This document shows, in pieces, positions 925 through 1,694 of a stretch of 64,000 nt of DNA. The DNA lies in the NCBI RefSeq assembly GCF_002571385.2, contig NW_019217946.1:295427-359426 (forward strand). The letters run 5' to 3'. The DNA comes from Stylophora pistillata. Lineage: Eukaryota. The notes under the pieces are model-generated. The model worked only from the letters and a program-made list of their open reading frames with translations. It was not told where the DNA came from and ran no database searches. The position numbers and the translations under genes are program-made. The first letter of the stretch is position 1. Each line of letters starts with the position of its first letter.

Positions 925-1694
925 ATGAAGCTGTTCATTACTTTCACAGTAATTGCAATATTCTTGCTTGTTGGTCACGTGGAACCTAAGCCCGGAGGTA
1001 AAATAATGTTTTTTTGCTCATTTGCCCTTGGTATATACACCAGCAACTTGTTTTGACATATTTTGTCCGATGTCTGTCTTCCGTGAAGGATATTCATTTT
1101 CCAGGCTAGACATTCTGGGAATTGTAGTAGACAATTCCAATCTCGCTGGTTTTTAGACGCCTAAGCATGTAAATCCCGCTTAGATCTGAAATGTTTAGAA
1201 CAAGTGGACTAATGCATTACAAACGGAGAGCATTACTACTCTATGCCACTGTAGTCGATCCTCGAAAGACAAAGCTACACAAAGGTCGAAGTTGACAAAT
1301 AAAGGACGGCGGTGTCTCCTTGCTTCCCCGCCCCCACCCCCTGCTCCACTGCCCCTCCCCCTTTAATCAGGCTAAATTTGTCAATATAGATGTTTTAAAA
1401 ACTTTTCACAGCTTTATTACTCCTAAAGATATAAGCGGCTTAATAAAGTTGTGAACAAAGACTTTACTTTGCCCAGAGAGTTAAGAGGTGCTTTAACATA
1501 AAATCATTCAAAGATAAAAGCTCTCTTTTATCAGTACTTTTCATCTCCGTTTTCTAGTCGCACAGGAGCCCAAGGATCAGTGCATATCTGGATATGACTT
1601 GAGATACTGTGCAATAAGGTGCAGGGGTGACTGTTCAGGTTGGCCCCACCCTGCCTGTGCTGATGGTCAATTGTGATGCAGCTGCCCGATGTGA
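925..1694 (+). CDS. Small secreted cysteine-rich peptide (2 coding exons) with an in-frame TGA at 1674-1676; pseudogene, truncated allele or recoding candidate
   Basis: Exon 925-997 encodes the signal peptide MKLFITFTVIAIFLLVGHVEPKPG (acceptor tttccag ending 898, donor gtaaaa 998, phase 1). It joins in phase to acceptor tttctag|1558: VAQEPKDQCISGYDLRYCAIRCRGDCSGWPHPACADGQL*CSCPM*. Not present in the ORF track. Confidence 0.65.

Follow-up and report, generated by a model that had tools for sequence, protein, structure and literature searches.

The CS-alpha-beta superfamily is marked by a cysteine-stabilised helix motif, which pairs a CxxxC with a CxC (the reference array's C3, C4, C8 and C9). 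Its members, among them invertebrate defensins, myticins/MGD, ASABF and hydramacin, are small peptides with a signal, a CxxxC and a C-terminal CxC, as described in the available part of the source (PMC5116183). Stony corals and anemones also make SCRiPs, which have a signal peptide, eight Cys clustering towards a terminal CCC, and precursors of 68–83 aa (PMC10892658, in the portion available); S. pistillata SCRiP1like reads C-x6-C-x6-C-x7-C-x5-C-x6-CCC in that paper's supplement. The gene considered here lies near the start of a 64,000-nucleotide (nt) stretch of the Stylophora pistillata genome (contig NW_019217946.1, positions 295,427 to 359,426, forward strand; "the window"). It encodes a small Cys-rich peptide whose framework of eight Cys positions includes an in-frame TGA. 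This stop codon is probably an ordinary one. The gene belongs to a small family of coral peptides, apparently not described before, which is set apart by its eight-Cys spacing and shares a CRGDC.

The spliced peptide gene and its homolog

The gene is real: it is spliced, and it encodes a small coral peptide that is likely secreted. Of 24 sequencing runs listed, seven were aligned to the window, six of RNA (X11, X12, X16, X19, X21 and X24) and one of DNA (X3), and a homolog, P0009, was found by protein search. The features of the gene are as follows.

901..997, plus strand: exon 1; 5' untranslated region (UTR) from at least 901, coding sequence at 925–997 with a predicted signal peptide, phase-1 donor GTAAAA at 998
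998..1557, plus strand: intron 1; 560 nt, GT..AG, acceptor ...TTTCTAG ending at 1557, skipped in RNA contigs X11, X12 and X16
1558..1695, plus strand: exon 2; 138 nt, mature Cys-rich peptide, C-x8-C-x3-C-x3-C-x7-C-x5-(TGA)C-x-C
1620..1634, plus strand: CRGDC motif, identical in P0009
1674..1676, plus strand: first in-frame TGA; P0009 has Cys here; the next donor follows 19 nt downstream; probably arose by nonsense mutation
1692..1694, plus strand: second TGA; P0009 has Trp here; judging by aligner behaviour, probably the stop at which the intact Stylophora form ends
1696..1701, plus strand: donor GTAAGT, where RNA contigs leave the genome and run on into 64–81 further letters

Exon 1 contributes 73 nt of coding sequence from an ATG at 925, ends in phase 1 and has a hydrophobic core reaching 2.85 on the Kyte-Doolittle scale over 11 residues. 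Five Cys precede the first TGA; with the TGA counted as a position, seven Cys complete a framework of eight, spaced 8, 3, 3, 7, 5, 0 and 1, and the precursor extends over 63 codons to the first TGA and 69 to the second. A sequence-only reading of this DNA had described a clean signal-peptide exon spliced in phase to a Cys-rich exon, with an eight-Cys framework spanning the TGA; all of these elements are present, and the same spacing recurs in P0009.

Transcripts joining 997 to 1558, which that reading had left for RNA to confirm, are found in the contigs of three of the six runs (X11, X12 and X16); the rows of X11 and X12 are identical, probably stem from one data set and are counted once. No RNA piece is gapped within exon 2, and the one listed RNA difference there, at 1655, is synonymous. 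The remaining runs do not cover the peptide exons: raw reads of X21, of which about 2% was read, include none on them and a few on the exons of a downstream protease gene, a weak result, and X24 has no reads on the protease exons either, so that its silence on the peptide is uninformative. On the protease exons, X11 differs from the reference at 11 of 622 letters, which marks it as a related lineage, not the same colony.

All three joining runs exit the genome exactly at 1695 and enter the same sequence. Its first 30 letters are absent from the window (best ungapped match with 11–12 mismatches) and were not found in the assembly at up to 2 mismatches; those colonies thus use a third exon that is either missing from this haplotype or unassembled. 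Candidate third exons within 1740–3560 were considered, and none fits the RNA. The missing 3' exon fits decay or rearrangement of this haplotype. In these RNAs, the sequence past 1695 starts like a pyrimidine tract followed by AG and may represent a cryptic acceptor that lies a little upstream of the normal acceptor. At the other end of the gene, an X16 contig covers 860–933 and extends about 145 letters further upstream (window 715–900), and X11 RNA starts at 901, just past an acceptor-like TTTCCAG (AG at 897–898), a possible sign of an upstream UTR exon.

An exhaustive phmmer search of 1.84 billion representatives returned three matches at E<=0.001. P0009, carried by one 1005-nt Logan contig, is 64% identical (E 1.9e-8), and its alignment runs gap-free through both TGAs and past them to the same intron-start residues; its Cys spacing, C-x8-C-x3-C-x3-C-x7-C-x5-CC-x-C, and its CRGDC are identical, it has Cys at the first TGA and Trp at the second, and it shares 4 of the 5 residues after the first TGA. 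The gap-free alignment fixes the reading frame, disfavours a frameshift and shows that the eight-Cys form exists in nature, and the Cys at the codon aligned to 1674–1676, the position that the sequence-only reading had singled out, supports the eight-Cys frame. Given the 997/1558 join in RNA and a homolog with identical Cys spacing, the framework pattern and the junction exceed chance. P0010 (8 matched stretches) and P0011 (6) were dropped because they matched in many short stretches, P0011 being a repeat protein without the Cys pattern.

Other searches for relatives were negative. Word-index protein searches gave no candidate homolog, a weak result, since they also missed P0009; among metagenome contigs, 596 Cys-pattern matches yielded no confirmed case; the ESM Atlas held no usable match for the window peptide; and six contigs with an ortholog of the protease (78–81% identity) carry no peptide gene in the 1.1–4.3 kb upstream, which leaves synteny uninformative. 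The gene is single-copy in the 398-Mb S. pistillata assembly, where three protein and DNA searches each matched its own locus alone, and no paralog was found in the assembly (protein and DNA) or in the window and 20 kb upstream (tblastn, Cys pattern). The peptide is not returned by protein searches, in keeping with its supposed unannotated status.

Readings of the in-frame TGA

Most probably, the first TGA arose by a nonsense mutation of a conserved cysteine codon, and it would deprive this haplotype's product of the last three cysteines. The sequence-only reading had offered a recent nonsense allele alongside a base-call error and a recoded stop, and the nonsense allele fares best: P0009 has Cys at the codon, no selenocysteine insertion sequence (SECIS) was found in the readable downstream DNA, and RNA differences probably lie near the codon. 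The position of these differences follows from how they are reported. Differences seen only in contigs are listed only where they lie at least 31 letters from the end of a piece, and 2 differences are counted, yet unlisted, for each of two pieces, X11 record 2 and X16 record 6. X11 record 2 starts 30 letters before the listed variant at 1655 and overlaps record 1 at 1625–1654, where no difference is listed. The listing rule and the overlap together place two unlisted RNA differences at 1666–1695 and leave 1587–1665 otherwise clean, a clustering that would be about 3–6 times likelier if one of the two falls in the TGA codon. A mismatch at the second-last position kept the aligner from extending at the 4261/4801 joint; going by that behaviour, these RNAs probably retain the second TGA as their working stop.

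On this account, the intact form would be a secreted 69-codon precursor that ends at the TGA at 1692, and processing would leave about 45 residues, folded with four disulfides. The allele in the reference would encode a 63-codon, five-Cys product that would probably misfold, making it a loss-of-function allele or a young pseudogene; because the stop lies only 19 nt before the junction, its mRNA would escape nonsense-mediated decay.

The DNA reads bear on whether the TGA is real. X3, which may be the assembly's own sample, equals the reference over 1344–1790 with 0 differences, both TGAs included. All 92 sampled words occur in DNA run X1, which comes from another sample and another year; under random sampling, the chance that a given base was left uncovered is about 3%, so that more than one sample carries the TGA allele. 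An error in the reference, either a base call or a one-base frameshift behind which the true frame would read VNCDAAARCE, is therefore hardly credible. A good donor does follow the VNCDAAARCE frame, and X3 could repeat the assembly's own data, but X1 holds all sampled words, the RNA contigs are ungapped in exon 2, and P0009 aligns in the TGA frame without gaps; the base-call and frameshift options of the sequence-only reading both give way to these observations.

Several points weigh against a nonsense mutation. The intact RNA allele at 1674–1676 is deduced from the layout of a table, not from displayed codon letters; the TGA allele is present beyond one sample; no second allele appears in X3, though contigs drop variants; the missing 3' exon could be an assembly defect; the homolog evidence comes from one sequence, P0009; and the conservation of the RGD across two sequences could be due to chance, the probability of which is about 0.17 (from a non-Cys identity of 20/36). 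A rival reading takes the TGA for a fixed, functional new stop in this Stylophora lineage, with a working five-Cys peptide that acts, for example, as a disulfide-linked dimer with the RGD. In its favour, the upstream exons are intact, the listed RNA difference at 1655 is synonymous, the allele occurs in more than one sample, and the stop would escape nonsense-mediated decay. Such a peptide would have lost 3 of the 8 framework cysteines, and the residues after the TGA are still conserved with P0009, as expected of a recent lesion, which makes a fixed stop unlikely.

If the TGA at 1674 were instead read as selenocysteine (Sec), the product would be a lineage-restricted, secreted, disulfide-rich RGD selenopeptide with a C-terminal U-C-S-C (UxxC-like), its SECIS lying in the 3' exon absent from the assembly. 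Eukaryotic selenoproteins with a C-terminal Sec, such as TrxR, SelK and SelS, likewise contain, close to the C-terminus, an in-frame UGA that pairs with a homolog's Cys; here, by contrast, no SECIS, no Sec-bearing homolog and no redox fold was found. The sequence-only reading held that orthologs with Cys at this codon would refute recoding, a logic that fails, since Sec/Cys pairs are the usual route to finding selenoproteins; the Cys in P0009 suits a nonsense mutation and Sec alike and, with the 4 of 5 conserved residues after it, counts for Sec, as do the UxxC motif, the spliced transcript, the presence of the allele in at least two DNA samples and a SECIS_1-like element elsewhere in the assembly, downstream of a G-G-TGA-G-Y exon, which suggests that this genome uses SECIS elements. 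Recoding is disfavoured on other grounds. The Rfam model detects no SECIS in 1500–8000, the true spliced 3' exon lying outside the assembly sequence, and a custom scanner, which detects the assembly's Rfam SECIS_1 match as a control, finds none in 1677–3560; the unlisted RNA differences are grouped close to the codon. Nonsense alleles occur often and new selenoproteins seldom arise in animals, which, together with the RNA-difference clue, favours a nonsense mutation and renders Sec very improbable. The available part of PMC3473315 treats the appearance of new selenoprotein families in animals as rare and credits Nematostella with 30 predicted selenoproteins.

The sole Rfam SECIS_1 match in the assembly scores 31.6 bits, below the cut-off (contig C292, region L098:1501–1563), and the Rfam model seems insensitive to coral SECIS elements. 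The G-G-TGA-G-Y exon upstream of the match, on the same contig (L098:108–203), presumably resembles selenoprotein W; its 32-aa piece was not confirmed by Pfam.

Family comparison and putative function

By sequence comparison, the eight-Cys spacing matches no family searched. Pfam returns no family at E<=10. PDB sequences give 3 chance matches (E 0.9–2.3) and none with a two-sequence profile, short peptides often escaping such searches. AlphaFold models of the P0009 piece and of the window exon (TGA read as X) both have a pLDDT of 55 and, at this low confidence, place one helix over the first CxxxC (12–21 and 14–20) and no strand of at least 3 residues; Foldseek finds no match to these low-confidence models at E<=0.001.

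The sequence-only reading took the CxxxC and terminal CxC for the established CS-alpha-beta defensin/toxin signature. Members of the superfamily pack a helix against an antiparallel sheet of two strands and have the disulfides C2–C6, C3–C8 and C4–C9. Both elements are present, also in P0009, and the peptide shares with the superfamily its small size, a predicted signal and, in both models, a predicted helix over the first CxxxC (compare PMC5116183, available part). It differs in a further Cys 3 residues past the CxxxC, an extra Cys directly before the CxC, models without a beta-sheet, a charge that is not cationic and the lack of a Pfam, PDB-sequence or Foldseek match, so that the signature stands as a pattern and CS-alpha-beta membership is unproven.

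With SCRiPs, the gene has in common its coral origin, a signal peptide, eight Cys with C-terminal clustering and, at 69 codons, a precursor length. SCRiP identity is ruled out by the Cys spacing and the CC-x-C end: the coral peptide is spaced x8-x3-x3-x7-x5-CC-x-C, has no dibasic site, is single-copy and has no PDB match to solved SCRiPs. Two peptide words tested against the available SCRiP supplement (PMC10892658) do not occur there. Anemone toxins fall into nine named folds in the accessible text of PMC6627431 and were compared by the quoted beta-defensin and inhibitor cystine knot patterns, both of which differ from the coral peptide. No available paper contains two of the four peptide words, and the literature, to the extent available, does not name such a peptide, which other papers' supplements, including transcriptome tables, could hold.

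Charge and the RGD give some indication of function. Membrane-lytic peptides are cationic, whereas the window peptide has 4 K+R against 5 D+E, and P0009 has 4 against 8. RGD is present in both of the two sequences, just after the predicted helix of the low-confidence models. The neutral-to-acidic charge and the shared RGD favour a receptor ligand over a cationic membrane-lytic antimicrobial. Among possible functions, it may tentatively be suggested that the intact peptide is an extracellular receptor ligand that displays its RGD on a turn between Cys residues, following a short helix, and that it acts in defence, venom or adhesion. Snake disintegrins, the leech peptides decorsin and ornatin and tick variabilin are likewise short, Cys-rich RGD peptides, as the coral peptide, predicted to be secreted, would be; their Cys spacing is different, and no sequence match to them was found. 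In the coral peptide, the RGD is flanked by two Cys, a trait common to both known members, and integrin binding is putative.

Genomic surroundings and implications

Downstream of the peptide gene lie two further features.

2296..3106, strand not assigned: old interspersed repeat between the peptide and protease genes; 49 other matches listed, at 68–89% identity
3555..5909, plus strand: separate chymotrypsin-like gene, which begins with a start and signal exon of its own (3555–3597); no fusion with the peptide

RNA reads from other copies of the repeat map to 2296–3106. The protease exon is 100% identical to the NCBI entry 'chymotrypsin A-like isoform X2 [Stylophora pistillata]'. A fusion of the peptide to the protease was considered and rejected, since the protease, like three of the five relatives listed for it (P0004, P0006 and P0007), starts with a short leader of its own, and since the RNA continues from exon 2 into different sequence. 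Isoform X2 (P0003) lacks an exon at about 4799–4906 that is present in RNA contig X11 and in orthologs P0004, P0006 and P0007, and its leader has Glu where P0004 has Val. Further along, low-complexity polar open frames at 8040–11795 (1251 aa) and 15065–16435 (456 aa) follow a short signal-like exon near 7890 and possibly form one large secreted protein gene; exons at 25586–26738 are, we presume from their motif, CAP-like.

The peptide arsenal of stony corals is thinly described, according to the available part of PMC5762905, and the peptide is, from its sequence, a candidate integrin-directed or defence peptide of these animals. If Sec were true after all, the gene would represent a rare replacement of Cys by Sec in a secreted peptide of an animal. 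Under the preferred nonsense reading, a reference genome in wide use seems to contain a broken allele, a possible reason for the lack of an annotated product among the results of protein searches. Should the allele segregate, colonies that have the TGA and colonies that lack it would constitute a natural knockout.
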